DNA of 64,000 bases from an uncultured Bacillota bacterium. GTDB lineage: Bacteria; Sysuimicrobiota; Sysuimicrobiia; Sysuimicrobiales; Segetimicrobiaceae. The DNA is taken from the NCBI GenBank assembly GCA_963804645.1, contig CAWDRG010000009.1, positions 320,001-384,000 on the forward strand, read 5' to 3'. The notes beneath the pieces are model-generated. The model saw only the letters and a program-made list of their open reading frames with translations, ran no database searches and was not told where the DNA came from. The translations under genes and the position numbers were made by a program. Below, piece by piece: positions 45,118 to 62,255 of this stretch (the stretch's first letter is position 1; the number at the start of each line of letters is the position of its first letter).

Positions 45118-46411
45118 GGTAGTGTCAAGTGTTTTGTGTAAATTCCCGTGAGAGAGAGCGCCTCGCCTGCCGGACATTCAGAGCCTGAACGATCGCATAG
45201 ATAATCCGATCACAGCTGGCCACGTTCGTGAAGCACGTCATGGGGCGCGTGCGCCGGCGGACTTCGCGAAACACCCGTTCAATCGCGTTCGTCGTGCGCA
45301 CCCGGCGCCAGTCCGCCTCGTTGACGGCATAGAAGCTGAGCAGAGCGTCCTCCTCGCGCGTCAGACAGGCGACCGCCGCGGGGGCGGTGGCCTGCCAGGC
45401 CTGGACCCACTGGCGCAGGAGGCGGCGCGCGGCGTGGGCGGTCGGCGCCTGATAGATTCGGCGCGCCATGCGCAGACACGCGTCCCGGTCCTTGACCCGC
45501 AGCCGATTGGCCACGTTGCGGAGGACATGGACCCAGCACGCTTGGCGCGGGACGTCCGAATAGACCAAATCGAGGGCGGCATGGAGGCCCCGCTGGCCGT
45601 CCGTCGTAATCAGCTGCAACTGCTTCCCGACTAACCCGCGGCAGGCCAGCGTCGTGAGAAAGGCTTCCCAGGTGGTTTGGGTCTCGTAGCGGGCCAGCCG
45701 GAAGTCGATCAGGTCCCGCTGCCCGGTCGGCCGAATGCCGTAGGCCACGAGAATCAAGCGGCGCTTGCTCCCCGCGAGCCCTTTCACCCGGAGGCTGACG
45801 GCGTCGAGGAACAGATACTGATAGTGATCGTCCAGCGTCCGGTGGTGGAAGGCCGCCGCGGCTTGATCCAAGGCCCGGGTGATCGTCGAGACGGTCGTGG
45901 GGCTCACGACATCGTCGAGGAGCTTGGCGAGGACGGGCCCGACCTGGCGGGTGGAGAGGCCGCCGAGGAAGACCGCGCGGACGAGCGCGTTGACGTCACT
46001 GGTGCGGCGCTGATAGCGGCCGAGCACCGAGGGCTGGAACCCACTCTGGCGGGCCCGGGGAAGATGGAGATCGGGGATGGTGCCCCACGTCGTCACCAAG
46101 CGGCGGCGGTAGACGCCATTCCGATACCCCTGCCGGTCCGGATTCCGAGTGTACCGGCCGGCATTCAGATGGTTGATCAACTCGTCATGCATCCGGTTCT
46201 CCAGCAAGAGCTTGACCGTGCGGAGCGTCTCTCGGGAGACATCCCCCCACAGGGTCGCTTCATCCTTGACCTCCTTCCAGAGATCGGCTACGGTGAGATC
46301 GGTCAGTGGTCGCACACTGGCCATGGGCGTATCCCTCCTTATGGTTGGTCAGGTCGGGGTACGCCCTCTCTTTTCGGGCTCCTGCTTTTACACACAATAC
46401 CGTACACTACC
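45118..46411 (-). mobile_element. IS256-family insertion sequence
   Basis: Imperfect TIRs GGTAGTGTCAAGTGTTTTGTGTAAA and (revcomp) GGTAGTGTACGGTATTGTGTGTAAA; flanking direct repeat GCACCG(G) at 45112 and 46412. Confidence 0.92.
45125..46324 (-). CDS. IS256-family (Mutator-like) DDE transposase
   Basis: YRNG, PR.R..F, GLSTR, YLFLDA, TTDG..GL, QACWVH..RN, RTTNAIER.FRE.RRR. Confidence 0.95.
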   Translation of the reverse strand: MASVRPLTDLTVADLWKEVKDEATLWGDVSRETLRTVKLLLENRMHDELINHLNAGRYTRNPDRQGYRNGVYRRRLVTTWGTIPDLHLPRARQSGFQPSVLGRYQRRTSDVNALVRAVFLGGLSTRQVGPVLAKLLDDVVSPTTVSTITRALDQAAAAFHHRTLDDHYQYLFLDAVSLRVKGLAGSKRRLILVAYGIRPTGQRDLIDFRLARYETQTTWEAFLTTLACRGLVGKQLQLITTDGQRGLHAALDLVYSDVPRQACWVHVLRNVANRLRVKDRDACLRMARRIYQAPTAHAARRLLRQWVQAWQATAPAAVACLTREEDALLSFYAVNEADWRRVRTTNAIERVFREVRRRTRPMTCFTNVASCDRIIYAIVQALNVRQARRSLSREFTQNT

Positions 46412-50025: not shown

Positions 50026-52869
50026 GTGAGCATTGCCCAGCAGCTAGAACGCATCCCGCCCCAAAACCTCGAAGCGGAACAGGGCGTGCTGGGATCGATG
50101 CTGCTCGACCGCGACGCCATCGCCCGCGTTATCGAATCGCTGCGCGCGGAAGATTTCTATCGCGACGCCCACCGTGTGATTTACATGGCGATGACCGAAC
50201 TGTTCGAGCGCGGAGAGCCCGTGGATCTGATCACGGTTACAAACCGCCTCACCGTACAGGGCAAGATCGATGACATCGGCGGCGCCACATACCTTGCGTC
50301 GCTCCCGAACGTCGTCCCCACTGCCGCAAACGTGGACTTCTACGGCAGCATCGTGATGGAAAAATCCATGCTGCGCCAGCTGATCAGTGCCGGCACGCAC
50401 ATCGCCGCGCTTGGGTACGACGCCGCAGACGACGTCGCCGCCCTGATTGACCAGGCCGAAAAGATGGTGTTCGGCATCGCCGCCCGCCGGAATGTTCAAG
50501 ACTTCCAGGCGATCAAGGAGATCCTTAAGGAGAGCTTCGATAAGATCGACAAGCGCTATCAGGAAAAGGGCACCGTCACGGGGGTCGCGACCGGATTCAC
50601 CGACCTCGACATGCTTACCTCCGGTCTCCAAGACTCCGACATGGTGATCGTCGCAGCCCGGCCATCGGTCGGCAAGTGTTTGACCGCCGACGCCGAGATC
50701 CTCCTGGCGGACGGCAGCATCGTCACCATCGGCGAGATCTACCGGCGGCGGCAAGGACGGCTGATGACGCTCGGGAACGACTGGCGATTCCGGTTCACGG
50801 AACCGTCGGCGTTCGTGGACGACGGCCTGAAGCCCGCGTTCCGCGTCACCACCCGGCTCGGACGCCGGGTCGAGACGACGGCGAGCCATCCGTTTCTGAC
50901 GCTCGACGGCTGGCTGCCGCTTGCCGCGCTCCGCACCGGAGACCGCATTGCAGTGCCGCGCCGTCTCAGTGTATTCGGCAACAAACCCATGCGCGAGTGC
51001 GAGGTGAAGCTCCTCGCGTACTTCATCGGAGATGGCTCACTGACAGGCGGCAAGGCCGCATTCACGAACACAGATCCCACCATGCTGCGCGATTTCTCGG
51101 CAGCCGTGCGCGCGTTTGGCGGCGTGCGCTGCCGTCGTGAGCGTGATTGTAGTGGCCGGCGCGCGCCGACGCTCGCCGTCGCAGGGAATCCGATGTTCCG
51201 CCGACAGCAACGCCGCGAGTTCGCCGGGCAGCTTCGTGCGGCGCTGGGGACAGCCCGCGGTGCCCGGGCCAGCCTGGCGCGAGCGCTCGACGTCACCCCG
51301 GCGGCCGTGCTCGGCTGGTGTCGAGGCGAGCAGGTCCCGAAGGCACACCGGTTTGCGCAGTTGTGCGGGGTGGTCGGCGTACCACCCGACCGCCTCGCGC
51401 CGCACGGTTTTCCGCCTGTGAGCCGCAGCAGCCAGAACCCCGTCGTCCTCTGGCTGCAGGCCCTCGGACTCTGGGAAAAGAAGGCGGCGGAGAAGCGGCT
51501 GCCGGCGGCGGTCTTTACACTGCCGAAGGCGCAATCCGCCCTCTTTCTGAACCGGCTGTTCGCAACGGACGGATGGGCCGCGGCGAACGCAGTGACCCGT
51601 TTGGCGCACGTTGGATACGCGTCGAGCAGCGAACATCTCGTGCGGCAGATCCAACATCTGCTGCTTCGCTTTGGGATCGTCGCTTCCGTTCGGAGGCGCA
51701 GTGTCCGCTATCTTCGCGAACTACGCACAGCGTGGGAGCTGTGCATCACGGATCCCGCCTCGATTCGCACGTTTGCCGAGGAGATCGGGATCTTCCGCAA
51801 GGAGCGCAAACTACAGCAGGCGCTCACGGTCGTCGCCCGGCGGGGTCGTATCCCGAATCGCGACACCATCCCGCGAGCGGTATGGCGCACGATGGCTGAC
51901 GCGAAGGGCGCCGAGTCGTGGGCGTCGCTTGCACGGCGCGCTGGCTGGGCGAATACCGGAAACGTCCACGTCGGAGTACGCGCACCGTCGCGAGATCGCC
52001 TCTTGACGTTCGCAACAGCTCTCGCCCACGACGGCTTGCGGCAGCTCGCCCACAGCGACGTGTACTGGGACGAGATCGTGGCGATCGAACCGACGGGCGA
52101 GAAACAAGTCTATGATCTTACGATTCCGGAGACCCACAACTTTGTCGCCAACGACATCTGCGTACACAACACGACCTTTGCGCTCAACATCGCGCAGCAC
52201 GCCGCACTCACCCGCAAGATCCCGGTGGCGATCTTCAGCCTTGAGACGAGCAAGGAGCAGCTGGTCCAGCGCATCCTCTGCTCGGAAGCACAGGTGGACA
52301 ACAGCAAACTCCGCACCGGGTTCCTGGCGGACGAGGACTGGCGCAAACTGGCCCGCGCGATGGGAGGACTCAGCGAAGCCCCCATCTTCATCGATGATTC
52401 GGCGACGCTCTCCGTCATCGAGATGCGGGCAAAAGCCCGGAAGCTCAAGGCCGAGCATGGGCTCGGGCTGATCGTGATCGATTACATCCAGCTCATTCAA
52501 TCGTACCGGCGTACCGAGAACCGCACCCAGGAGCTCAGCGAGATCGCCCGCAACATCAAGTCGCTCGCCAAGGAGCTCGCTATTCCGATCATTGCGATCT
52601 CACAGCTCAGCCGCGCCGTCGAGGCGCTCGGGCAGAAGCGCCCGATGCTGAGCCACCTGCGCGAGAGCGGCGAGATCGAACAGGTGAGCGACCTCGTGCT
52701 GTTTCTCTATCGTGAGGATTACTACGATCAGGAGAAGGCGCACAAGGAGAACAAGGAAAATATCTGCGAGATCATCATCGCCAAGCACCGCAACGGTCCG
52801 ATCGGCACCGTGGAACTGTACTTCCACAAGGAGCACAGTCGGTTCGACAATCTGTCAAAACAACGATAA
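50026..52869 (+). CDS. dnaB: replicative DNA helicase DnaB (intein-containing)
   Basis: PPQNLEAEQ.VLG, AARPSVGK|T Walker A split by the intein, IDYIQL, SQLSR, LRESG.IEQ, AKHRNGP.G. Confidence 0.97.
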   Translation: MSIAQQLERIPPQNLEAEQGVLGSMLLDRDAIARVIESLRAEDFYRDAHRVIYMAMTELFERGEPVDLITVTNRLTVQGKIDDIGGATYLASLPNVVPTAANVDFYGSIVMEKSMLRQLISAGTHIAALGYDAADDVAALIDQAEKMVFGIAARRNVQDFQAIKEILKESFDKIDKRYQEKGTVTGVATGFTDLDMLTSGLQDSDMVIVAARPSVGKCLTADAEILLADGSIVTIGEIYRRRQGRLMTLGNDWRFRFTEPSAFVDDGLKPAFRVTTRLGRRVETTASHPFLTLDGWLPLAALRTGDRIAVPRRLSVFGNKPMRECEVKLLAYFIGDGSLTGGKAAFTNTDPTMLRDFSAAVRAFGGVRCRRERDCSGRRAPTLAVAGNPMFRRQQRREFAGQLRAALGTARGARASLARALDVTPAAVLGWCRGEQVPKAHRFAQLCGVVGVPPDRLAPHGFPPVSRSSQNPVVLWLQALGLWEKKAAEKRLPAAVFTLPKAQSALFLNRLFATDGWAAANAVTRLAHVGYASSSEHLVRQIQHLLLRFGIVASVRRRSVRYLRELRTAWELCITDPASIRTFAEEIGIFRKERKLQQALTVVARRGRIPNRDTIPRAVWRTMADAKGAESWASLARRAGWANTGNVHVGVRAPSRDRLLTFATALAHDGLRQLAHSDVYWDEIVAIEPTGEKQVYDLTIPETHNFVANDICVHNTTFALNIAQHAALTRKIPVAIFSLETSKEQLVQRILCSEAQVDNSKLRTGFLADEDWRKLARAMGGLSEAPIFIDDSATLSVIEMRAKARKLKAEHGLGLIVIDYIQLIQSYRRTENRTQELSEIARNIKSLAKELAIPIIAISQLSRAVEALGQKRPMLSHLRESGEIEQVSDLVLFLYREDYYDQEKAHKENKENICEIIIAKHRNGPIGTVELYFHKEHSRFDNLSKQR
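50677..52170 (+). mobile_element. intein with LAGLIDADG homing endonuclease (498 aa) in the DnaB P-loop
   Basis: CLTAD N-terminus, block B TASHPF, LAYFIGDG and FLNRLFATDG motifs, VYDLTI..THNFVAN...VHN|T C-terminus. Confidence 0.95.
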
Positions 52870-52893
52870 CTACTGCGGCGGCGGAGTAGTAGT

Positions 52894-55121
52894 TGTAGGA
52901 TTCGATCCTATCTTGGCAATATCGAAGATATCTCGACATGGCAATTGTGAGGATATCGTGTGCCAGCGGGTGTTGATCCCAGCGAACGTATTGTGTCGCT
53001 ATCGCGCGCGCTGCGCTGTGGATGGGCGGGCGGCCCGTACGGGCCGCCCGCCCGGTTGACGCTTCGACTACTGTCCGTGCTTTGCCATGGCTTCCTCGAT
53101 CTTCGCTTTCACCGCATCGAGGTTGAAGCTCGCGCCCTTCTGCGCCGGCGGGAACTCGATAGCCGTCATGGCCAGCTTCGCCACTCGCTGTTGGACGAAC
53201 ACGAAGCGCCAGAACTCGAATCTGAACCAGTCGAAGTATTGGTAGGATCCGAGATTTCCGTTCCCTTGTGGCCACGTCGTCTTCTCGAAGGGATCGAGGC
53301 GCAGGTTCACGAGCAGCGGCACGTCCGGGTGGTCCTTGGTACCAATCCAGCCGCCGGGCTGCACGATGAAAGTATATTTGAAGTCGTCGATCCGTACCGC
53401 GGCGAGGTTGCTCTCAGTAAAGTAGAAGATCTCGTTGCGGGCGGATGGCCCCTTGCCGGTGATCAGATCCATCTGATTGTAGCCGTCCAGATGCGTCTTG
53501 TACGTCGTTCCGCCGAGTTGTTTCCCCTTCTTGAGCTCATCGGCGATGTTCGGGTTGCCGGCCGCGGCCACGAAGGTCGCAAACCAATCCTGGCCCGAGA
53601 TGATGCCAGGCTCCACCACGCCGGCGGGGACCTTACCGGGCCAGCGAATCATCGCGGGACAACGGAACCCGCCTTCATAGCCCGTACCTTTGGCACCGTA
53701 AAACGGCGTCTGTCCGCCGTCGGGCCAGGTGAAGCTTTCCGTGCCGTTGTCGGTGGTGAACATGACGATGGTGTTGTCGTCCAGCTCGTTGTCTTTCAAG
53801 TACTGCATGAGCGCGCCGACGCTGTCGTCGAGCTGGGCCATGCCGGCTTCGTGAATGGTCCAGCCGTTCTTCGAATTCTGCAGGGCTTCGTACTTCGGCG
53901 ACAGATGGGTGACGATGTGCATGCGGGTCGGGTTGAACCAGAGGAAAAACGGTTTGCCGGCCGCCTTAGCCTTGTCGACGAACTTGAGGCTGGCCGCGAG
54001 AATTTCGTCGTCCACGGTCTCCATCCGCTTGGGATACAGCGTGCCGGCGTCCTCGATCTTCTGCTTGCCGACCTTGCCCCAGCGCGGCATCACCGTCGGG
54101 TCGTCCGTGTCCGTGGCCCACGAATGGACCATGTTGCGCGGGCCGACCGTGTTCAATAACTCCTGCGGATAGGCGGGGTGGGCGGGGTCCTCCATGGCGT
54201 CGAGGTGGTAGAGATAGCCGAAGAACTCGTCAAAGCCGTGGACCGTGGGCAGGTACTTATTCATGTCGCCCAAGTGGTTCTTCCCGAACTGCCCGGTCGC
54301 GTAGCCCATCTCTTTGAGGGCCGTCGCGATCGTCGGCGCAGAATCCGGCATCCCGACATCCGCCCCCGCCTGGCCGACGGTCGTGAGACCCGTGCGCATC
54401 GGGAGCTGGCCGGTGATGAACGCCGCCCGCCCCGCCGTGCAGCTTGCCTCCCCGTAGTAATCGGTGAACAGCATGCCTTCGCCGGCGAGCTTGTCGAGGT
54501 GCGGCGTCCGCCCGGCCATCATACCTCGATGGTACGCCCCGATATTCCAGATGCCGATGTCATCGGCCATGATCACGACGATGTTTGGTTGTTTTGTCGC
54601 CAACTTCGACCTCCGCAGTCAATTTTGAACCCTCTCCGAGTGAGCGTGATCCCTCGTCGACTGACGGGCACCCTGCTCAGAGCCGTCCGGAACTGCAGTC
54701 ACCCCCTACGGATTCCGTCGTCGGTACGCTAGATCCGTGTGGCTCATGACATGGGCCGTCACGCCACTCGGACGGCCCAACCTGACCGAAAGACACTTGA
54801 AGATCGCTCGAGGGGGAATGACAACACCAAGAAGCACGTGGTGTTGCGTATTTGCATTCCCGATCTGTGCCCGTCGGAGGGGAGCCGGAATTTCCGAGAG
54901 TCTACGGGGAGATTAATGCGGCGGCCGTAGTCCGCCGGACCGAGCGAAGATGCCGGACTGTATGCGCCGATCGCCCTCCGCCAGTTCCCCCCAAGTCTAG
55001 CACTTGGGAAAGCGAATGGCCCATAGGAATTGCTAAGATATCCCGTCTCGAAGGTGCTCTGACGGGCGACTTTTGCCAAGATCTCCCCGGCCGGATTGCT
55101 AAGATAGGATCAAATCCTACA
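52894..55121. mobile_element. cassette 1: TIR-bounded non-autonomous element carrying a sulfatase
   Basis: Left end TGTAGGATTCGATCCTATCTTGGCAAT; right end revcomp TGTAGGATTTGATCCTATCTTAGCAAT; internal 11-bp repeats. Confidence 0.8.
53068..54603 (-). CDS. arylsulfatase (Cys-type, FGly-dependent)
   Basis: PNIVVIMADD, SCTAGRAAFITG, GKNHLG, TTDNG; TTG start with GGAGG RBS. Confidence 0.93.
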   Translation of the reverse strand: MATKQPNIVVIMADDIGIWNIGAYHRGMMAGRTPHLDKLAGEGMLFTDYYGEASCTAGRAAFITGQLPMRTGLTTVGQAGADVGMPDSAPTIATALKEMGYATGQFGKNHLGDMNKYLPTVHGFDEFFGYLYHLDAMEDPAHPAYPQELLNTVGPRNMVHSWATDTDDPTVMPRWGKVGKQKIEDAGTLYPKRMETVDDEILAASLKFVDKAKAAGKPFFLWFNPTRMHIVTHLSPKYEALQNSKNGWTIHEAGMAQLDDSVGALMQYLKDNELDDNTIVMFTTDNGTESFTWPDGGQTPFYGAKGTGYEGGFRCPAMIRWPGKVPAGVVEPGIISGQDWFATFVAAAGNPNIADELKKGKQLGGTTYKTHLDGYNQMDLITGKGPSARNEIFYFTESNLAAVRIDDFKYTFIVQPGGWIGTKDHPDVPLLVNLRLDPFEKTTWPQGNGNLGSYQYFDWFRFEFWRFVFVQQRVAKLAMTAIEFPPAQKGASFNLDAVKAKIEEAMAKHGQ

Positions 55122-55129
55122 CGACGACT

Positions 55130-57122
55130 TGTAGGATGCGATCCTATCTTGACAAAGTCGAAGATATCTCGGTAATGCGTTAGCAATTGCCAAGATATCC
55201 ACGCAGACCTCAATGCGGATCTACGGAATGGGGAGGACGAGAAGAATCGGAAGCGAGGACGGACATAACGAAGAAGAAGGGGGAGCGACCGCCGACATCC
55301 AACGAAATGACGGCCCGGCACCTGGACGTACTCCAGGCGAATCTACCACGGCCGAGAACGGGCGAGTCCCCCGATGAGTGAAGGAAGTGGCTCGATTCCT
55401 ATCGAACGCGAGGCGAACAGAGACAAGACGACTTAAATTAGGCCCCAGCGCCACGAGACTGCCTGATCGGCCCTCACATCGCAGCGCCAGCACGCACTAT
55501 CCGGAGGATCGCGCGATGGATATCACCGTCCAGAACGGCTTGAGCGTTCCCGTGTACAGCTCCGTGGGCCACAGCGACGGCTGGCAGGTGGCCGACCTCC
55601 TGGGGAACACGGCGGGCTTGGTCACGGGCGTTACCGCCTTCGCAGAGGTCTCGGGGTTGGTTACGGTCATCAACGCGATCCAATTGGGAAACGCCGGCTT
55701 GGCCGCGGCGCAGCGGATCCCCGGCATTCTTCAGAAGTTCTGCTTCACCGTGCAGCCGGGCATGAGCCAATCGGCACGCGAGGCCATCGGGATCGCCGAT
55801 CAGTTCCGCGCGAGCTACTGGAACGATCTGTTCGGCGGCAAGAGCCTAGGCGTGTTCATGTCTAATACCGAACACGCCGTGCTGGTCAACGCCAGCACCA
55901 TCACGCCCCGCACGTACCGCGTCGAGGCCAAGGGGGCGCGGGAGGGCGGGTTTCTTCACCGCTGGGGCGAGCCTGGCTACTACTCCACGATGAATACGTC
56001 GGCACCGCCGTCCGTCGTCGCGTTCGGAGGCAAGTATCACATGTTCTTCCGCGACGGCAGCGGCAACGGCATCTTGCACGCCACCTCCGACGAGGGGATC
56101 TACTGGAAGGGCGCGGACCCATTCTATATCGGCGTCAACACCAGCTCCGCGCCGGCACCGGTGGTGTACAACAACCAGGTCTACATCTTCTTCCGCGACG
56201 GAGCGGGCAACGGCATCCTGTATGTCGTCTCCAAGGACGGCTACACGTTTACGGCACCGCAGAACTGGTACATCGGTCTGAATTGTGACGCGCAACCCTC
56301 GGTGACCGTCCACAACGGAGCGCTCCACCTGGTCGCGCGCGACCACGGGGGGGCCGGCGTCATGTACGCGTATCAAACCGCCACGGGATGGCAGCACGGG
56401 TACACGGGAGAGAACACGTCCGCGCCGCCGGCGGTCATCTCGTTCGCGAATCGCCTGCATGTCTTCTATAAGGACGGCGGCGCCAACAACGGCGTATTGC
56501 ACATGGTGTCCGACGACGGCGTCCACTACCGGCGCGCCGACGTCTACCACCCCGACATCACGACAAGCGCGGGACCCTGCCCGTTAGTCTATCGCGGAAA
56601 CCTGCTGCTGCTGTTTCGCGACGGGACGGGAAACGGCGTGCTCTACAGTATCTCCGCCGACGGCACCCAGTTTACCAACCCGCCCGATTGGTACCTGGGA
56701 CTGAACATCGACAACGAACCGTCGGCCGCCGTGCTGGGCGACCACCTCTGCATTCTGGGAAGGGACCCGGGCGGCAACGGGGTAATGTCGCAGGTCCCGG
56801 ACCTCAGTCCTTAGTCCGAGGGGGATCGGATGTGTTCAACACGCCCCGCGCAGACGCTGTTCGTCTGCGCGGGGCGCTGGTTGATCACCACGTCCTACTT
56901 ACAAAAAGAGCTAGACTATCGGCATCCGGAAGAGAGGCTATATCAGCGCGCGCTGCAAACCTGCGGATAACCACGTAATCCCTCGACTTTTATAGGAGCC
57001 CATTATCATGGGCGCGACGATCCGTAGGAATTGCTAAGATATCGCCCCTCCAACGGTCTTTGCCAGGCTACTTTTGCTAAGATATCCCCGGCCAAATTGC
57101 TAAGATAAGATCAAATCCTACA
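55130..57122. mobile_element. cassette 2: TIR-bounded element carrying a beta-propeller protein
   Basis: TGTAGGATGCGATCCTATCTTGACAA ... TTGCTAAGATAAGATCAAATCCTACA; same site spacing as cassette 1. Confidence 0.8.
55516..56814 (+). CDS. hypothetical protein with six ~47-aa repeats (probable beta-propeller)
   Basis: GGAGG RBS; repeats 'NTS.PP.V..F......FFRDG.GNG.L...S.DG..F'. Confidence 0.8.
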   Translation: MDITVQNGLSVPVYSSVGHSDGWQVADLLGNTAGLVTGVTAFAEVSGLVTVINAIQLGNAGLAAAQRIPGILQKFCFTVQPGMSQSAREAIGIADQFRASYWNDLFGGKSLGVFMSNTEHAVLVNASTITPRTYRVEAKGAREGGFLHRWGEPGYYSTMNTSAPPSVVAFGGKYHMFFRDGSGNGILHATSDEGIYWKGADPFYIGVNTSSAPAPVVYNNQVYIFFRDGAGNGILYVVSKDGYTFTAPQNWYIGLNCDAQPSVTVHNGALHLVARDHGGAGVMYAYQTATGWQHGYTGENTSAPPAVISFANRLHVFYKDGGANNGVLHMVSDDGVHYRRADVYHPDITTSAGPCPLVYRGNLLLLFRDGTGNGVLYSISADGTQFTNPPDWYLGLNIDNEPSAAVLGDHLCILGRDPGGNGVMSQVPDLSP

Positions 57123-57131
57123 CTACATGTA

Positions 57132-57213
57132 CGCAGGATCGATCCGATCTTGGCAATTTCAAAGATATCTCGGCAACGTGTTGGCAGTAGCCGAGATACG
57201 ATCAAATCCTGCA
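57132..57213. repeat. empty mini-unit (left end fused to a right terminus)
   Basis: CGCAGGATCGATCCGATCTTGGCAA...TATCTCGGCAA...TAGCCGAGATACGATCAAATCCTGCA. Confidence 0.65.
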
Positions 57214-57348
57214 ACACCCCCCACAGCAGACCGGTTGCTGTGTGTGAACAGCAGATCCTAATAGGTCTTTCCCCCCGTCACTTTGATGCCGGACGCCGAC
57301 ATCGCCATCGACGGCGGGCAGACACCCAGCGTGCGGAGCGGACCGAGA

Positions 57349-59379
57349 ATGGCAGATAAGCACGTGCATCTCACCCAGCGCTTCGCGATAAAGACGACGC
57401 CGGTCTTGCAGGCGCTGTTGATCGTCGCCGCGGGAGTGTGGGTCTTCTATCCTGCTATCCATGGCCAGTGGCTCTGGGATGATGACGTCCTCATTACAAA
57501 CAATCTACTGATCCACGATCCGGCGGGACTCTGGAAGACCTGGTTCGCCCCGACCATGAGTTTGATCGACTACTTCCCGATCACGGTCAGCGTGGAATGG
57601 CTGGCGTGGCGTGCGTGGGGACTGAACACGTTTGGCTACCATCTCACGAGTATCGTGCTGCACCTCACCAGCGCGCTGCTGGTGTGGCGTCTGTTGAGCA
57701 AACTGGGAATCCGGCTGGCGTGGCTGGGCGGACTCCTGTTTGCCATTCACCCGGTGATGGTGGAATCGGTGGCCTGGATCGCAGAACTCAAGAACACCCT
57801 CTCCCTACCTCCATTCCTGATCGCGATGTGCGCGTGGATCGACTACGAGGAACACGGGAAATGGACACACTACTGGCTGGCTCTCGGCCTGTTTCTCGTC
57901 GCGATGCTCTGCAAGACCACGATGGTGATGTTCCCGTTCGTGATCCTGCTCTATGCCTGGTGGAAGCGAGGGCGGATACGGGTCCGGGATCTGACAGGGA
58001 GCGCGCCCTTCTTCGTTGTGTCGCTCGTGCTGGGGCTCACCACGATGTGGTTCTTGCATCATGCGATGGCTCCCCAGGCCGTCCAACTCGGCGGCTTTCT
58101 CTCTCGCGTGGCATGCGCGGGTCTGTCGCTCGCGTTTTATTTCTCCAAGTCCGTGCTGCCCATTGGACTACTCCCGACGTATCCTCAATGGGCGGTCGGT
58201 CGCCCATCGCTGGTACAGTTTCTGCCGTGGCCGATTCTCGGTGGCGTGCTCTACCTATGCTGGGCCAACCGCGCCAGCTGGGGCCGGCATGCATTGCTCG
58301 GGCTCGGCTTCTTTCTCATCAACCTGGCACCTTTTGTGGGATTCACCGCGGCTGCGTACATGGACTTTACCTGGGTCATGGACCACACCCTGTACATTCC
58401 CTTGATTGGCTTAATTGGACTGGCGACGGCGGGGCTGGGCTGGCTCGACGATCGGGTGCCCGCGTCTACCCGGCCCTACGGCATCGGGATGGTCACGGTG
58501 GTGCTGGTCCTCTTGGCCGTCAGCAGCCGTGCGTACGCCGGACTCTACGTCAACCCAGAGACGCTGTGGACGTATACCGTTGAACGCAACTCCGACGCGT
58601 GGCTGGCTTACGATAACCTCGGCTATACGCTCACCAAGGCCGGAAAGTTTACGGAAGCAATCGGAGAATTTGAGCAGGCCCTCCGCATTAATCCCAATTA
58701 TGCCTCCACGCATGACGACCTCGGCACCGCCTTGTTCCGCGTCGGCCGGCTTCGGGAAGCGCAGCGTGAAGTCGAACAGGCCTTGCGGATCGACCCTGAT
58801 TCCGCCACCGCCCACAACAACCTGGCGACCATTCTGGTGCACCTCGGACGAATCCCAGAAGCCATTCAACAATTTCAGGCCGCCGTGCGGATCAATCCCA
58901 ATGATGCCGAGGCGCACAACGGCATGGGTACTGCCCTGGTCCAGAACGGTCAGTATGCGGATGCGGTGGAAGAATTCGAAGCGGCCTTGCAAATCAATCC
59001 TGATTTTTCCGAGGTCCACGACAACCTGGGGGCCATGCTCGCCCACTTCGGACAAATCCCCGAGGCCATTGAACAATTTCAGGCCGCCGTGCGGATCAAT
59101 CCCAATGATGCCGAGGCGCACTACGACATGGGGTTCGCCTTGACCCAGACCGGCCGGGATGAGGACGCCTTGGAAGAATTCGAAGCGGCCGTGCGGATCA
59201 ATCCCGATTTTGCCGAGGCTCACAACAATCTGGGGGTCATTCTGGCACGCCGCGGACGTATCCCAGAGGCCATTCAGCAATTTCAGGCCGCTGTGCAGAT
59301 CAATCCCAATTACACTGAGGCGCGACGTAATCTGACCCGCGTGCTCAATCGCGAGAAGACCTCTCCGCCCAGGCGCTAA
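57349..59379 (+). CDS. TMTC-like membrane protein (GT-C-like domain + about 8 TPRs)
   Basis: WLWDDD motif, 'GYHLTS..LH', 'LFAIHP..VESVAWI.E.K', C-terminal TPR array with DNA-level repeats. Confidence 0.85.
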   Translation: MADKHVHLTQRFAIKTTPVLQALLIVAAGVWVFYPAIHGQWLWDDDVLITNNLLIHDPAGLWKTWFAPTMSLIDYFPITVSVEWLAWRAWGLNTFGYHLTSIVLHLTSALLVWRLLSKLGIRLAWLGGLLFAIHPVMVESVAWIAELKNTLSLPPFLIAMCAWIDYEEHGKWTHYWLALGLFLVAMLCKTTMVMFPFVILLYAWWKRGRIRVRDLTGSAPFFVVSLVLGLTTMWFLHHAMAPQAVQLGGFLSRVACAGLSLAFYFSKSVLPIGLLPTYPQWAVGRPSLVQFLPWPILGGVLYLCWANRASWGRHALLGLGFFLINLAPFVGFTAAAYMDFTWVMDHTLYIPLIGLIGLATAGLGWLDDRVPASTRPYGIGMVTVVLVLLAVSSRAYAGLYVNPETLWTYTVERNSDAWLAYDNLGYTLTKAGKFTEAIGEFEQALRINPNYASTHDDLGTALFRVGRLREAQREVEQALRIDPDSATAHNNLATILVHLGRIPEAIQQFQAAVRINPNDAEAHNGMGTALVQNGQYADAVEEFEAALQINPDFSEVHDNLGAMLAHFGQIPEAIEQFQAAVRINPNDAEAHYDMGFALTQTGRDEDALEEFEAAVRINPDFAEAHNNLGVILARRGRIPEAIQQFQAAVQINPNYTEARRNLTRVLNREKTSPPRR

Positions 59380-59720
59380 GGCCTCTCAGATGTGGAGATA
59401 CGCCCGCTGAAACGGTGGGGCCAGAGGCCCGACAAGCGAGTGAATTCCCAGATCACTGAGGCCAGGCGACGCCCCGTAGGAATCGTTGAGATAGCCCCCG
59501 TGCCCCGCGAAGTTGCGTGGCGCGTCACAACGCGCAAGCAAGGGCAGAATGCCCGAATTCGCGCGAGAAAAGTGGGCCAAAGTATGAGTGATCGTTGAGG
59601 TCATTTGGCCCGCGTTGGCACCGCCGGGTGTGCGGGCTTTCTCGCTCCGCTCGGGGCGCTGGCCCGTTGAGCACGTCCGAAGCTCGATTCCACTGATAGA
59701 TGGGGGCGTGGGACACCCCG

Positions 59721-59845
59721 AAGGAATTGCTAGGATAGGCCCCGTTCGAAGACACCGCGTCGGACGCTCTTGCCAAGTTACGATCAGATCCTACAGCTAT
59801 AGTAGCAATACCGAAACAATGTCATGGCAACCGCCAACATATCCT
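59721..59845. repeat. degenerate cassette junction (right end at 59795 + remnant left end)
   Basis: TTGCTAGGATA (59727), TTGCCAAGTTA (59770), CGATCAGATCCTACA ending 59795, then TATAGTAGCAATACCGAA...CATGGCAACCGCCAACATATCC. Confidence 0.7.
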
Positions 59846-59999: not shown

Positions 60000-62000
60000 T
60001 TAAACCGACGATTCGCGTGGATCGACCGATGTGGTGTGCACCGGCAGGTCTTTGCGCCACCGCCGCTGGAACACCTGCCGACCGTCAAGGTCCGCTTCCA
60101 CGTCGACATGGATCACAAACGGCGTGGCCAACAGATTGGCTCGGATCGACACGCTGCCCGCGGAGCGGCGGTGCTGCACCAGGACCTCCGCGCGCAGGTT
60201 CGCCGTCCACGGACGATCGGCATCGGTGGTCACGATGCCGTGGTAATCCAGTCCCGTAATCGTGTGCGCGTCGAACCCCTGCTCGTAGTGGAACGTGGCT
60301 TCGTAGCTGACCGTCTTGCCGATAAGATCTCGGTGCACGACATGCGTTTCATCCGACCGCACGCCCGCGGAGAGACGCAGGAGACCGTCAGCATCGGCGG
60401 CCGGAAGCGACGGCGCGGGCAGCCCGGCGCCCCGGTCCGAGATGATCGGCAACTCGACCAGCGACGCCCTGGCGCCACCATAGTGAATCTGGAGTTCGTA
60501 CGGTTCGGGCGTGGGCCAGATCTCGGGGAAATCGGCGCCCGCGAGACACAGGCGCAAGCGGTGGCCCGCCGGTACCACCCGGCAGACCGGTGAGAGCGCC
60601 AGTGAGATCTGGCGGACTTCGTCGCGTGCCAGCGGGCGACGTGGATCGTGGGCGCTCTGCTGGCTGACGTTGGTCCATTCACGTGCGATGACGATGGAGC
60701 CGCCCCGGGGATCGACCTCGCAGAGCTTTACCGCAAGGGAGGGTGCTGGTGTGGTCGCAGACAGTACGACGTGGGCGATTGGTGTGCCACCCAGCTCGAG
60801 GTCCGAGGCGAGCGGCGGAGTCGTGTAGGAGAGTGAGCGATGGTCGTCCGCACTTTGATCGCTCGGCAATGGGATGCCGGCGATGCCGCCGTGCAGGGCC
60901 ACCGATTCGATGCCGACGCGCGAGTCATATACCCAGGTGTCCGACCCCGCGCGCTGCTCGTCCTCCCCGCGCGACAGTCGACCATCCGGGCCAACACGGA
61001 ACGCGACGCGCTCGGCGCGCGCGAGCGGCCAGTCAGCTTCGTACCGCCAGTAACCAGCGCCGAGGACATACACCGTCACCGGGGGCTCGCGATCCACGCC
61101 ATTCTCTATTCCCTTGAGCCAGCGATCCCACCACCGGTCCATTTCACGGAGCGCGCCGATCGGGTGCACGGGAGAGAAATCCGGGAATGCATGCTTCCAC
61201 GGTCCCATCAGGATGCGTTTCGGTCCGTGAAGGGCTTCGTAGACCATGAAGCTGGGTCCCGCGTACTTGTCGTGCCAACCCGAGATAAGAAACGTCGGGA
61301 CCGCAATGCGCTCGTACGGAACGCGGCGGCGAAGCCAGAAGTCGGGATCCGGAGGCTCGCCGTGCCATGAGAGGAGCCACGGCATGTTGGCCTCGAGCCG
61401 TTCGCGCCAAATCTCCAGCCACCGGTCGCCGTCCTCTTGGATGAGGGGCGGGGCCAGGTTCGTGGCCACCAGGCGGGGGGCCCAACTTACCTCGTTGTAC
61501 ATCAGCCCCTGGCATCCGTGGGGACGCAGGTACCAGTCGTAGTTGTCGAAGGTCCCGTGGATCGGGACGATCGCCTTCAAGTGCTGCGGGCGCGTCGAGG
61601 CGATGCTAAGGGACGTGCATCCACCGTAGGAAGTGCCCCACAAGCCGACGGCCCCGGTACACCAGGGCTGCACTGCGATCCACTCCACGACGGCATGTCC
61701 ATCCGCCCGCTCCTGAGGATCAAACGGAAATGGGTTCGTGCCTTCGGAGCAGCCCACGCCGCGAAAGTCCACGTCCAGGGTGGCGTAACCGCGGCTCGCG
61801 AAGTGCTGGTGCGCCGCCGCGCGTATCGCGGCACTTCGCGTGCCGTCCTTATGGTACGGCGTAAAGGAGAACACCGCAGGAAACGGCCCCCCGGTATCGG
61901 GCAGCAGCAGATTCGCCGCCAGCTGCACACCATCTGGCATGGGGATCCGGATGTTGCGCGCCGCCTTCAGACCCGAAGCCGCGGTGTTTGACGATGGCAT
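60000..62000 (-). CDS. CocE/NonD family hydrolase (peptidase S15-like)
   Basis: IPMPDGV.LAA, TPYHKD, D.RG.G.SEG, GTSYGG nucleophile, GW.D, GPW.H. Confidence 0.9.
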   Translation of the reverse strand: MPSSNTAASGLKAARNIRIPMPDGVQLAANLLLPDTGGPFPAVFSFTPYHKDGTRSAAIRAAAHQHFASRGYATLDVDFRGVGCSEGTNPFPFDPQERADGHAVVEWIAVQPWCTGAVGLWGTSYGGCTSLSIASTRPQHLKAIVPIHGTFDNYDWYLRPHGCQGLMYNEVSWAPRLVATNLAPPLIQEDGDRWLEIWRERLEANMPWLLSWHGEPPDPDFWLRRRVPYERIAVPTFLISGWHDKYAGPSFMVYEALHGPKRILMGPWKHAFPDFSPVHPIGALREMDRWWDRWLKGIENGVDREPPVTVYVLGAGYWRYEADWPLARAERVAFRVGPDGRLSRGEDEQRAGSDTWVYDSRVGIESVALHGGIAGIPLPSDQSADDHRSLSYTTPPLASDLELGGTPIAHVVLSATTPAPSLAVKLCEVDPRGGSIVIAREWTNVSQQSAHDPRRPLARDEVRQISLALSPVCRVVPAGHRLRLCLAGADFPEIWPTPEPYELQIHYGGARASLVELPIISDRGAGLPAPSLPAADADGLLRLSAGVRSDETHVVHRDLIGKTVSYEATFHYEQGFDAHTITGLDYHGIVTTDADRPWTANLRAEVLVQHRRSAGSVSIRANLLATPFVIHVDVEADLDGRQVFQRRWRKDLPVHTTSVDPRESSV

Positions 62001-62255
62001 CTCTCGCCCCCTACATACCACGTGATCGCGTAGGTGCTGGTCTCGAGACGCCTGGGCATCGGGTCACCGGTGGCCCGCCGACGACTCAAGACCCTCGTCG
62101 CAATCACCGAACCGCTCGTCCAGGAATCCCATCCCGTCGGAGCCACCGACGTCGGGTGCGCCGCGCGTCGATGGCCGACGCACGGATCCGTCCAATGGGG
62201 ACCGTAGAGAGAACCGACGTACTCGCCGAATCCGCGCAGAGAATGGGTACGTCCA

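Follow-up and report, generated by a model that had tools for sequence, protein, structure and literature searches.

Gene cassettes stacked end to end behind dnaB, with short set gaps and no target-site duplications

Mobile elements are often recognized by the structure of their ends and by the traces that joining leaves beside them. A combination of TGT...ACA termini and neighbouring repeated sites is the usual design of DDE transposons such as Tn7, Mu and IS21, and is not typical of tyrosine elements. MICs and MITEs are non-autonomous derivatives of insertion sequences (IS), and MICs carry passenger genes. For Tn7, target immunity would discourage near-identical ends from lying next to each other. 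Target immunity is among the subjects treated in PMC11014353. Other systems bring two ends together. According to a passage of PMC3299598, abutted ends are the insertion substrate in the IS3, IS30, IS21 and IS256 families, while tandem dimers of IS30 are described in part of PMC9333248 as forming by the joining of ends of two copies. Among tyrosine-recombinase elements, Tn6283 is presented in sections of PMC5991714 as a strand-biased circularising element whose joint consists of motif C, a 6-bp spacer and C', shows no direct repeat and has a spacer that moves with the element; heterology is tolerated by IntDOT, as stated in an excerpt of PMC2817482.

Here we describe small mobile gene cassettes stacked end to end directly 3' of the essential helicase gene dnaB, in a stretch of 64,000 nt (the window) from a bacterial genome of 5.3 Mb. 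Because the cassettes are separated by a fixed 8-base gap and no target is duplicated, they do not look like ordinary transposon insertions.

Layout of the array

The array starts 24 nt past the dnaB stop codon, and the S15 peptidase gene is its conserved right neighbour. The features of the locus, in window coordinates, are the following.

50026..52869, + strand: dnaB, replicative helicase with intein (Pfam DnaB_C, DnaB, Intein_splicing, LAGLIDADG_3)
52870..52893, + strand: chromosomal left flank, ctactg cggcggcgg a gtagtagt, a period-3 tract
52894..55121, + strand: cassette A, 2228 bp; 27-nt terminal inverted repeats matching at 25/27; 72.3 bits with model R1
52894-52957: left end of cassette A
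53068..54603, - strand: sulfatase gene of cassette A (Pfam Sulfatase, E 5e-51)
55017-55121: right end of cassette A, three direct sites
55122..55129: spacer of junction 1, cgacgact, 8 nt
55130..57122, + strand: cassette B, 1993 bp; 74.4 bits with R1
55130-55199: left end of cassette B
55378(55516)..56814: beta-propeller/BNR-like ORF of cassette B
56842-56876: hairpin in cassette B
57018-57122: right end of cassette B
57123..57131: spacer of junction 2, ctacatgt+a, 9 nt
57132..57213, + strand: empty mini-element of 82 bp, GCAGGAT variant at both ends (CGCAGGAT... / ...ATCCTGCA); weak R1 match at 57162-57213
57214..59795, + strand: older, eroded cassette material
57283..59379: PMT_2/TPR (TPR/glycosyltransferase) gene in the eroded material
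around 59466-59499: right-end remnant in the eroded material
59710-59795: eroded right end without the middle site
59796..59809, + strand: chromosomal right flank, gctatagtagcaat
60000..62021, - strand: S15 peptidase gene

A cassette consists of a left end, cargo and a right end. The cargo of the array comprises a sulfatase, a beta-propeller protein, a TPR/glycosyltransferase gene and, in the 82-bp unit, nothing; the genes are oriented both ways, and no cassette of the array contains a transposase or recombinase gene. At its edges the array shows half-sites, a lone left end at dnaB and a lone right end at the far side. A 6-bp direct repeat, TAGTAG, is present in both flanks, 1 nt and 4 nt from the outer termini.

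Ends, junctions and flanks

The cassette ends are 27-bp TGT...ACA inverted repeats combined with subterminal ATTGCYAAGATATC sites. Each end begins with a conserved 13-nt tip (TGTAGGAT...), followed by repeated sites that are predicted to bind protein; three direct sites, spaced by 23 and 43 nt, make up the right end, and two sites plus a flipped one the left end. Counts in the window are 15 for the site motif (0.55 expected from shuffles) and 6 for the terminal motif (1.29 expected), and all matches with 0-1 mismatch across the 5.3-Mb genome lie at the dnaB locus. Sequence variants are shared by the two ends of one element and not by the ends that face each other at a junction: in cassette A the left and right end (LE_A/RE_A) agree at 25/27 positions versus 22/27 for RE_A/LE_B, and the GCAGGAT variant is common to the two ends of the mini-element and missing from its junction partner.

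Both junctions lie between two cassettes, where a right end is followed by the left end of its neighbour. Junction 1 consists of GATCAAATCCTACA (55108-55121), cgacgact (55122-55129) and TGTAGGATGCGATC (55130-55143), and junction 2 of TCCTACA (57116-57122), ctacatgt+a (57123-57131) and CGCAGGA (57132-57138). The innermost site-to-site span is 60 nt in both cases, so that 38 nt separate the 11-bp sites, and the offsets from RE_A to RE_B and from LE_B to LE_C are each exactly 2001. An earlier note, made from this sequence alone, had reported the same junction sequences and inner distance, which we confirm. Its notation for junction 2 has the right letters and hides a refinement: the left-end tip there is 1 nt shorter owing to a 1-nt deletion, offset by the extra base of the 9-nt spacer, a compensation represented by one case only.

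The junction palindromes fold as single-stranded DNA with -16.6, -14.6 and -23.6 kcal/mol (z -5.7 to -8.1). The strength of every palindrome, together with an array of single-gene cassettes without enzymes, would suit a model of integron-like or dif-like recombination sites, one per junction, with the cassettes as the DNA in between. We regard this as most improbable: half-sites bound the array, end variants pair within the element, cargo genes lie in both orientations, no integrase gene adjoins the array, and solitary ends and minis occur in the family. The earlier note had likewise compared the junctions to a recombination site; that each is a single site of one unit does not survive the distribution of GCAGGAT, which identifies two ends of two elements.

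Model R1 detects the element family, with diverged site motifs, in 10 of the 94 genomes searched from this small phylum, and family ends lie behind dnaB in six of the eight relatives fetched. Distances from the dnaB stop codon vary (4, 4, 8 and 24 nt, the last being that of the present array). The alignment indicates that the right-end architecture is kept between genomes while the site motif differs; in some left ends (genomes G001, G006 and G002) a site is flipped and nearer the tip. Five tight junctions from four genomes of three genera have spacers of 8, 8+1, 7, 8 and 8 nt, three of them (8, 8 and 7 nt) stemming from the comparison with relatives that the earlier note had suggested. Genome G010 has one junction with a 7-nt spacer and one gap of ~50 nt, and the 8-mer gtagtagt, the chromosomal flank of the present array, also serves as a junction spacer in G007. 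MITE-like empty versions measure 82 bp here, 101 bp in G001 and 119 bp in G006; in G006, dnaB is followed by other small genes and then the S15 peptidase. Across nine genomes the family cargo includes sulfatase, beta-propellers, SDR, arginase, EEP nuclease, PEMT, hydrolases and, by eye, a reductase-like gene, and the cassettes examined in them contain no transposase or recombinase. When the right flank and the junction were used as DNA queries, relatives yielded neither an empty site nor a close copy. No circle junction or bridged empty site was seen in the contigs of four public runs, which are short and of low depth and whose uncovered parts are uninformative.

No direct repeat of 3-9 nt abuts cassette A, cassette B or the 82-bp mini, whose flanks agree at 1/5, 3/5 and 1/5 positions as 5-mers and at 3/8, 4/8 and 0/8 as 8-mers. 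With the minis of G001 and G006 included, abutting direct repeats are absent at all five complete units (5-mer identities 1/5, 3/5, 1/5, 2/5 and 0/5), and the flank pairs are unmatched although the adjoining 27-nt ends are conserved at 21-26 of 27 positions. Other ways of reading the flanks were rejected. Duplications of 3 bp or 8 bp fail for every single cassette; splitting the 8-nt spacer into 4+4 nt from a 5-bp duplication (GTAG+TAGT, CGAC+GACT) works for 2/5 spacers only; and a target consensus, GTAGTAGT, has weak backing from the sequences taken as a group (mean pairwise identity 2.38 versus 2.20, a value reached by 7% of random sets). Because the fixed geometry recurs in relatives and the minis are free of duplications, the end-to-end geometry is a family trait rather than a product of erosion. 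The absence of 5-bp duplications claimed by the earlier note stands. That note had also proposed that fresher copies with such duplications and variable spacers would reveal eroded junctions; instead, the minis of two relatives lack duplications and the geometry recurs in three other genomes.

These flanks also bear on Tn7-like stacking, that is, successive TnsD/TniQ-guided insertions at an attachment site behind dnaB whose 5-bp duplications and spacing have since eroded. Ends of Tn7-like appearance, with TGT...ACA termini and three right-end sites spaced by 23 and 43 nt, and insertions a short distance downstream of an essential gene in several genomes, would be expected from it. Nonetheless, this history is very unlikely, given that each junction has a different spacer, of 8 nt instead of 5, that the flank pairs fail to match beside conserved ends, and that the same spacing is found in three other genomes. 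The distance to the dnaB stop is not fixed, near-identical ends lie side by side despite the expected target immunity, and TniQ is absent from the own genome and present in only one of the 94 phylum genomes, on a Tn5053-like contig. Mu-transpos_C in five cassette-bearing relatives and TnsA_N in the own genome gave no match either, results that are weak because the controls of both searches were silent too. The poor fit to Tn7 noted earlier is thus borne out by the missing 5-bp duplications, the 8-nt gap and a genome and relatives without Tn7 targeting genes.

Enzyme search and proposed mode of joining

Neither the own genome nor the 94 phylum genomes yielded an autonomous parent bearing these ends, and exact-pattern scans of genome and metagenome collections found none either. 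The exact end-pattern matches in these collections (1 in genome_contigs, 21 in metagenome_contigs) represent a single low-GC (0.39-0.44), apparently protein-coding stretch and were judged to be chance. The title of the genome record names Clostridium, and several of the metagenome records name the human gut.

Several candidate enzymes were considered and set aside. The own genome has 11 Phage_integrase matches, all on other contigs and none linked to the ends; the only integrase near a family end, in G001, is a frameshifted fragment beside a stretch that resembles, by eye, a tRNA 3' half. An IS256-family gene in the window (45125..46324) is without matching ends, a multi-copy 1.4-kb IS of the own genome has 4-bp duplications and unrelated ends, and an IS21-family copy on its contig C22 shares the end design with other sequences. 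A 543-aa ORF that lies immediately internal to a right end of G002 looks like a secreted repeat protein and has no Pfam match, and weak TniB-like matches in open frames of ~830-970 aa were taken for generic ATPases. As the enzyme was not found, tyrosine recombinase and DDE transposase are both kept as its possible class.

A DDE enzyme could act by copy-out/paste-in joining, in which the 3'-OH of one end becomes linked to flanking DNA at a set distance outside a neighbouring end, as in tandem IS dimers. The TGT...ACA termini and the bipartite ends, each a tip with subterminal sites, agree with such an event, as do the abutted ends known from these IS families; the position of joining seems to be set by the distance from the subterminal site, which parts of PMC7780238 report for IS911 and IS2, and IS21-family copies are present in 9 of 23 genomes of the bacterial family. 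Paste-in leaves target duplications, however, and these are missing from all five complete units. None of the 20 IS21 loci of relatives matches the cassette-end model, no IstB match at E<=1e-10 occurs in G010 or G001, both of which carry cassettes, and the flipped subterminal site of some left ends should not be tolerated by a rigid bipartite DDE contact. No cognate DDE transposase with the same ends was found, the other IS of the own genome having unrelated ends. We consider this route possible, if rather doubtful.

We give about an even chance to a conservative alternative: cassettes mobilised in trans are joined at a distance measured from the subterminal sites, leaving a travelling coupling spacer and no duplication. 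Under conservative joining, an enzyme encoded elsewhere would move the cassettes and connect right ends with left ends at a spacing that the subterminal sites set. Joining would leave a spacer of 8 nt (7-9) of arbitrary sequence, without duplicating the target, and the spacer would then travel with the cassette. A putative circular cassette (right end, spacer, left end) would be exchanged into the boundary beside the resident left end behind dnaB; because the exchange takes place next to that end, the chromosomal flank gtagtagt would stay outermost and each newcomer would bring its own spacer.

In favour of conservative joining we count the equal 60-nt span, the offset of the tip deletion, the five tight junctions and the lack of repeats at five units, as well as end pairing within elements, enzyme-less cassettes, the conserved right-end architecture and the gtagtagt shared with G007. 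The flipped, tip-closer site of some left ends can be compatible with arm-type sites. Against it we count the fruitless search for the enzyme and for circle junctions or empty sites, the single case of tip compensation, the DDE-typical TGT...ACA ends with adjacent sites, a design shared by the IS21-family copy of the own genome, and the 7-nt junction and ~50-nt gap in G010; the model also leaves the period-3 composition of the flanks unexplained. Of the two descriptions offered by the earlier note, a coupling sequence with arm sites or end-targeted joining at a fixed distance, the functional content remains the best available, while the junction as one recombination site of one unit does not hold. 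Its suggestion that the mechanism may be new is unproven, as Tn916, CTnDOT, Tn6283 and copy-out/paste-in IS junctions already display the logic. More tentatively, and in our view improbable as a whole, the locus may represent a way of exchanging gene cassettes that has so far not been described, in a small and uncultured phylum. It would be an integron analogue in role, assembled from other components: a host-encoded trans enzyme would capture single-gene cassettes with transposon-type ends by ruler joining, at dnaB and a few further places, with a travelling 8-nt coupling spacer, no target duplication and the period-3 flank tracts as its footprint.

If the reading as conservative joining is right, a poorly known peat-soil phylum keeps a gene-capture site behind an essential gene, filled by swappable single-gene cassettes (sulfatase, lectin-like propellers, glycosyltransferases, reductases) that move without an enzyme of their own. 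The geometry, with a travelling spacer and no duplication, would link the coupling sequences of tyrosine recombinases and the end-to-end junctions of IS, which are usually kept apart. The tip, the sites and the 8-nt gap provide a concrete sequence signature for finding the missing enzyme, and annotators may take from this locus that transposon-like ends without target duplications need not be eroded.

Comparison with known systems

Integrons resemble the array as chromosomal sites that collect swappable single-gene cassettes lacking their own enzyme. The array differs from them in having no adjacent integrase, no attI/attC organisation, two inverted ends per cassette and genes in either orientation. 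MICs and MITEs share terminal inverted repeats, the lack of a transposase and a content of one or few passenger genes or none, whereas the array has no parent IS with matching ends in the genomes searched, no duplications and a concentration of arrays at one hot spot.

Tn7-like transposons have TGT...ACA termini, several subterminal sites and asymmetric left and right ends, and they insert preferentially just 3' of an essential gene, where they accumulate. Unlike them, the array shows no 5-bp duplication, has 8-nt gaps of variable sequence and a variable distance from the gene, and lacks tnsABC/tniQ.

In copy-out/paste-in IS (IS30, IS21, IS3/IS911/IS2, IS256/ISCth4), as in the array, a right end abuts a left end across a short set spacer, which in the IS derives from flanking DNA (passages of PMC9333248 and PMC3299598). 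Bipartite ends are also shared, with the join position set by a subterminal binding site (PMC7780238, in part), for which one case is available here. The IS junctions, in contrast, are short-lived, promote expression of the transposase and go on to give insertions with duplications, whereas those of the array are stable, lie between cassettes of different cargo and are without duplications.

Tyrosine-recombinase elements (Tn916, CTnDOT, Tn6283) share with the array imperfect inverted-repeat termini, the absence of target duplication, separate repeated arm sites near both ends and a fixed-length arbitrary spacer between abutted ends, although for the array the travel of the spacer is conjectural. 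The array departs from them in a spacer of 8 nt rather than 5-7, in TGT...ACA termini, in cassettes none of which contains a recombinase gene and in tiny single-gene units stacked behind dnaB, known here without an observed circle. The best reading is that the joining logic resembles either the joints of Tn916 and Tn6283 or the end-to-end junctions of IS30, IS3 and IS256.

Anatomy of the cassette array behind dnaB

The array begins 24 nt past the stop codon of an intein-bearing dnaB gene (50026..52869) and is followed by an S15 peptidase gene. Its cargo genes lie in mixed orientation, on either strand, and no transposase or recombinase was found in any of its cassettes.

Units of the array, in window coordinates
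52894-55121, cassette A: sulfatase gene on the minus strand
55130-57122, cassette B: beta-propeller/BNR-like protein, for which protein atlas leads are weak
57132-57213, 82-bp unit: two ends and no other content
Older stretch, closing at 59795 with an eroded right end: PMT_2/TPR gene, with a right-end remnant near 59466

The left (LE) and right (RE) ends of each unit form a 27-nt inverted repeat (25/27 for LE_A against RE_A). Right ends carry three direct sites, spaced 23 and 43 nt, and left ends carry two sites together with one flipped site. Shuffles predict 0.55 copies of the repeated site, ATTGCYAAGATATC, and 1.29 of the terminal motif, and the window has 15 and 6; copies with 0 or 1 mismatch were confined to the array locus when the whole 5.3-Mb genome was searched. 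Within the surrounding region, DnaB (50026-52869) has an intein that includes a LAGLIDADG endonuclease and an HTH region, and the relatives' DnaB proteins carry one or two inteins, judged from open-frame lengths between 450 and 1300 aa. In the last cassette, the TPR gene contains three 204-bp tandem repeats (58610-59317), 69-70% alike, which correspond to repeated TPR modules. At 45125-46324 (minus strand), 6.5 kb upstream of the array, is a gene for an IS256-family (Mutator-type) transposase, with ends unrelated to the cassette ends.

Junction geometry and absence of target duplications

At each junction, the right end of one cassette stands beside the left end of the next, and reading the coordinates confirmed the junction sequences of the earlier note.

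Sequences at the two junctions
Junction 1: GATCAAATCCTACA (55108-55121), spacer cgacgact (55122-55129), TGTAGGATGCGATC (55130-55143)
Junction 2: ...TCCTACA (to 57122), spacer ctacatgt plus one a (57123-57131), CGCAGGAT... (from 57132)

The fixed geometry claimed there was borne out: the innermost site on the left and that on the right are 60 nt apart at both junctions, and the offset from RE_A to RE_B equals that from LE_B to LE_C, the left end of the 82-bp unit, at exactly 2001. At junction 2 the left-end tip is one base shorter (CGCAGGAT-CGATCC vs TGTAGGATGCGATCC) and the spacer one base longer, and the distance is preserved despite both changes. Read as single strands, the junctions are strong palindromes (z -5.7 to -8.1) because two inverted ends stand side by side. 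The proposal of a single recombination site was not supported: the array is limited by half-sites, an unpaired left end on the dnaB side and an unpaired right end on the other, and the sequence variants pair within elements. GCAGGAT is shared by both ends of the 82-bp unit, whereas its neighbour over junction 2, the B right end, reads GTAGGAT; end pairs within an element are at least as alike as those across a junction (LE_A/RE_A 25/27 vs RE_A/LE_B 22/27). Each junction is made up of two ends of separate units, not one site.

The reported lack of target-site duplications was upheld for the three window units (cassettes A and B and the 82-bp unit) and extends to a MITE-like mini in each of two relatives (G001, 101 bp; G006, 119 bp). 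No direct repeat of 3-9 nt was found in the abutting flanks of these five units, nor any exact repeat of at least 4 nt within 4 nt of their termini. Only the complete array is bracketed by TAGTAG, at distances of 1 nt and 4 nt from its outermost ends; this repeat may be a mark of the original target tract.

A family of ends in related genomes

Exact-pattern scans of genome and metagenome collections returned only one low-GC stretch, in records titled Clostridium and human-gut, which was judged a chance match. Related ends were present in the DNA behind dnaB in six of eight relatives (G006, G003, G015, G010, G002 and G001), and none was found there in G011 and G013. Comparing the locus of one relative with the rest by BLAST revealed a common 88-nt end, from which six right ends were aligned: all share the tip TGTAGGATT.GAT, a CCGGGGATA stretch ahead of the second site and an identical three-site layout. 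The site itself varies by genome, being ATCTTAGCAAT in the window's genome and AGTTGGCCATTT in G010, G007, G001 and G003. R1, a sequence-only model of the family right end, matched 10 of the 94 genomes of the phylum set (phylum, class and order are the same set): the window's own genome, eight of the other 22 in its family and, with a weak match (E 0.008), one elsewhere. The strict end pattern was found in 5/94. The observation is thereby confirmed and widened to a family, whose ends also occur away from dnaB, often at contig ends. G010 has two right-end copies that match at 94-100% across some 150 nt, and this likeness suggests that the family was recently copied or active in that genome. Also in G010, an 11-kb family member (L112 on C58, 11484 bp, with L103 on C16) holds about ten cargo genes, with TetR, PCMT, GntR-aminotransferase, ADH, patatin and PEMT plus an IS630-type fragment, and is followed by about 50 AT-rich nt and another right-type end.

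A scan for ...CCTRCA, 3-14 nt, YGYAGG... over 249,977 nt returned six matches, where shuffles averaged 2.3 (maximum 6); five of the six are flanked by family sites.

Spacer lengths at the five junctions
Window junction 1: 8 nt
Window junction 2: 8+1 nt
G010 junction behind dnaB: 7 nt
G007 junction: 8 nt (gtagtagt)
G002 junction: 8 nt

The remaining match, at window 62010 with a 13-nt gap, has no sites and was taken as chance; elsewhere in G010, about 50 AT-rich nt separate one right end from the next left-end-like sequence. On these lengths, the 8-nt gap is a family trait across three genera. The outcome that the earlier note named as counting against its reading, fresher copies with 5-bp duplications and variable gaps, did not appear.

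The 7-12 nt outside the termini are rich in period-3 repeats (cggcggcgg-agtagtagt in the window; gcggcggcggtggtg, cttcatcatcaa and atagtaatagtagtag in relatives), with cggcggcgg, agtagtagt, gcggcggcg and catcatca among the triplet tracts. Scored over window 52870-52893 and loci L098, L099, L100, L102/L112, L022 and L105, 87 of 195 flank positions match at an offset of 3 nt, compared with 58.9 +/- 6.8 in random windows of the same loci; only one of 20,000 random sets reached 87, and no such excess is seen at periods 2, 4 or 5. In the window gtagtagt flanks LE_A, and the identical 8-mer is the G007 spacer; gtagtaga follows a right end in G001, and the dnaB flank of G010 holds TGTAGTAGTAGT and TGTAGTAGT. 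As a group the flanks are weakly alike, with 7% of random sets equally alike. Such tracts may be preferred targets mimicking the tip TGTAGGA, or may be footprints of repeated events.

Contigs from public sequencing runs point to strain-level variation in the array. In a contig of run X1, the last base of RE_A (55121) is linked to 57070, midway through RE_B, by 11 foreign letters, of which the first eight are identical to the right-hand flank of the 82-bp unit in reverse complement. Runs X2 and X4 have contigs that skip 59461-59702, the 242 bp between two right-end remnants of the last cassette.

Candidate enzymes and comparison with known reactions

No transposase or recombinase gene was found inside the cassettes of nine genomes; because these hold ordinary cargo alone, the cassette-moving enzyme must act in trans or is no longer present. 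TniQ is absent from the window's genome and occurs in one of the 94 phylum genomes, at a Tn5053/Tn402-like locus (L055, G041:C23, 3987 bp) that also encodes a serine resolvase, a tniB-like ORF and an incomplete tniA. Searches for TnsA_N in the window's genome and for Mu-transpos_C in five relatives came back empty, weak results given that control genomes gave no signal either, and weak TniB-like matches, in open frames of roughly 830-970 aa, were taken as generic ATPases. Classic Tn7 stacking at dnaB is unlikely: the gap is wrong, Tn7 genes are missing, and no flank pairs match though the adjoining ends are conserved at 21-26/27. The earlier reading of a coupling-spacer geometry that is not classic Tn7 is supported. 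The literature searched yielded no papers on Tn7-like elements at dnaB or on this end family.

The 18 rve matches in the window's genome include IS481-type, IS21-type and other weakly rve-like copies. Among them, a multi-copy 1.4-kb IS was rejected as the source on its unrelated ends and 4-bp duplications. The genome holds two IS of this kind, related to each other, each roughly 1.4 kb long and present in several copies; their transposases are weakly rve-like, and they show multiple ATCTTACC-type repeats near the ends as well as 4-bp duplications. Copies lie at C6:45263-46685, C9:313876-315298 and elsewhere, one of them 5 kb before the window. An IS21 copy was also set aside: its end design is alike (TGT tip, two sites 22 nt apart) and its sequences are different. 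Of the 23 genomes in the bacterial family, 9 have IS21 helpers; R1 matched none of 20 IS21 loci, and G010 and G001 have cassettes and lack IstB at E<=1e-10. Phage_integrase gave 11 matches in the window's genome, none on the window's contig; the only integrase fragment near a family end, in G001, is frameshifted and lies beside a stretch resembling, by eye, a tRNA 3' half, and was treated as part of another element.

Any mechanism has to account for a fixed gap from subterminal sites, arbitrary spacers, no duplications, ends of separate units and hot-spot stacking beside resident ends. By our analysis, two known reaction kinds would fit all of these facts, a tyrosine recombinase with a coupling spacer and copy-out/paste-in IS transposition, and the new mechanism envisaged earlier was not substantiated. 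In the proposed route, a cassette circle whose right end and left end are joined through 8 nt would recombine into the boundary next to a left end already in place, so that the chromosomal flank gtagtagt would remain outermost and each newcomer would carry its own spacer on its right side. The Tn6283 joint is described as motif C, a 6-bp spacer and C', with no flanking direct repeat and a spacer that travels with the element, and its authors liken it to Tn916 and CTnDOT (PMC5991714); IntDOT is reported to tolerate overlap heterology (PMC2817482). A tyrosine recombinase is slightly favoured by the lack of duplications and by the flipped site lying nearer the tip in some left ends (G001, G006, G002). 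Pointing the opposite way are the TGT...ACA tips and the ruler-like spacing. In copy-out/paste-in IS, abutted ends are described as the reactive intermediate (PMC3299598, PMC9333248), and in IS911 and IS2 a truncated tip is reported to lengthen the spacer in step (PMC7780238), the same change of shorter tip and longer spacer that junction 2 shows.
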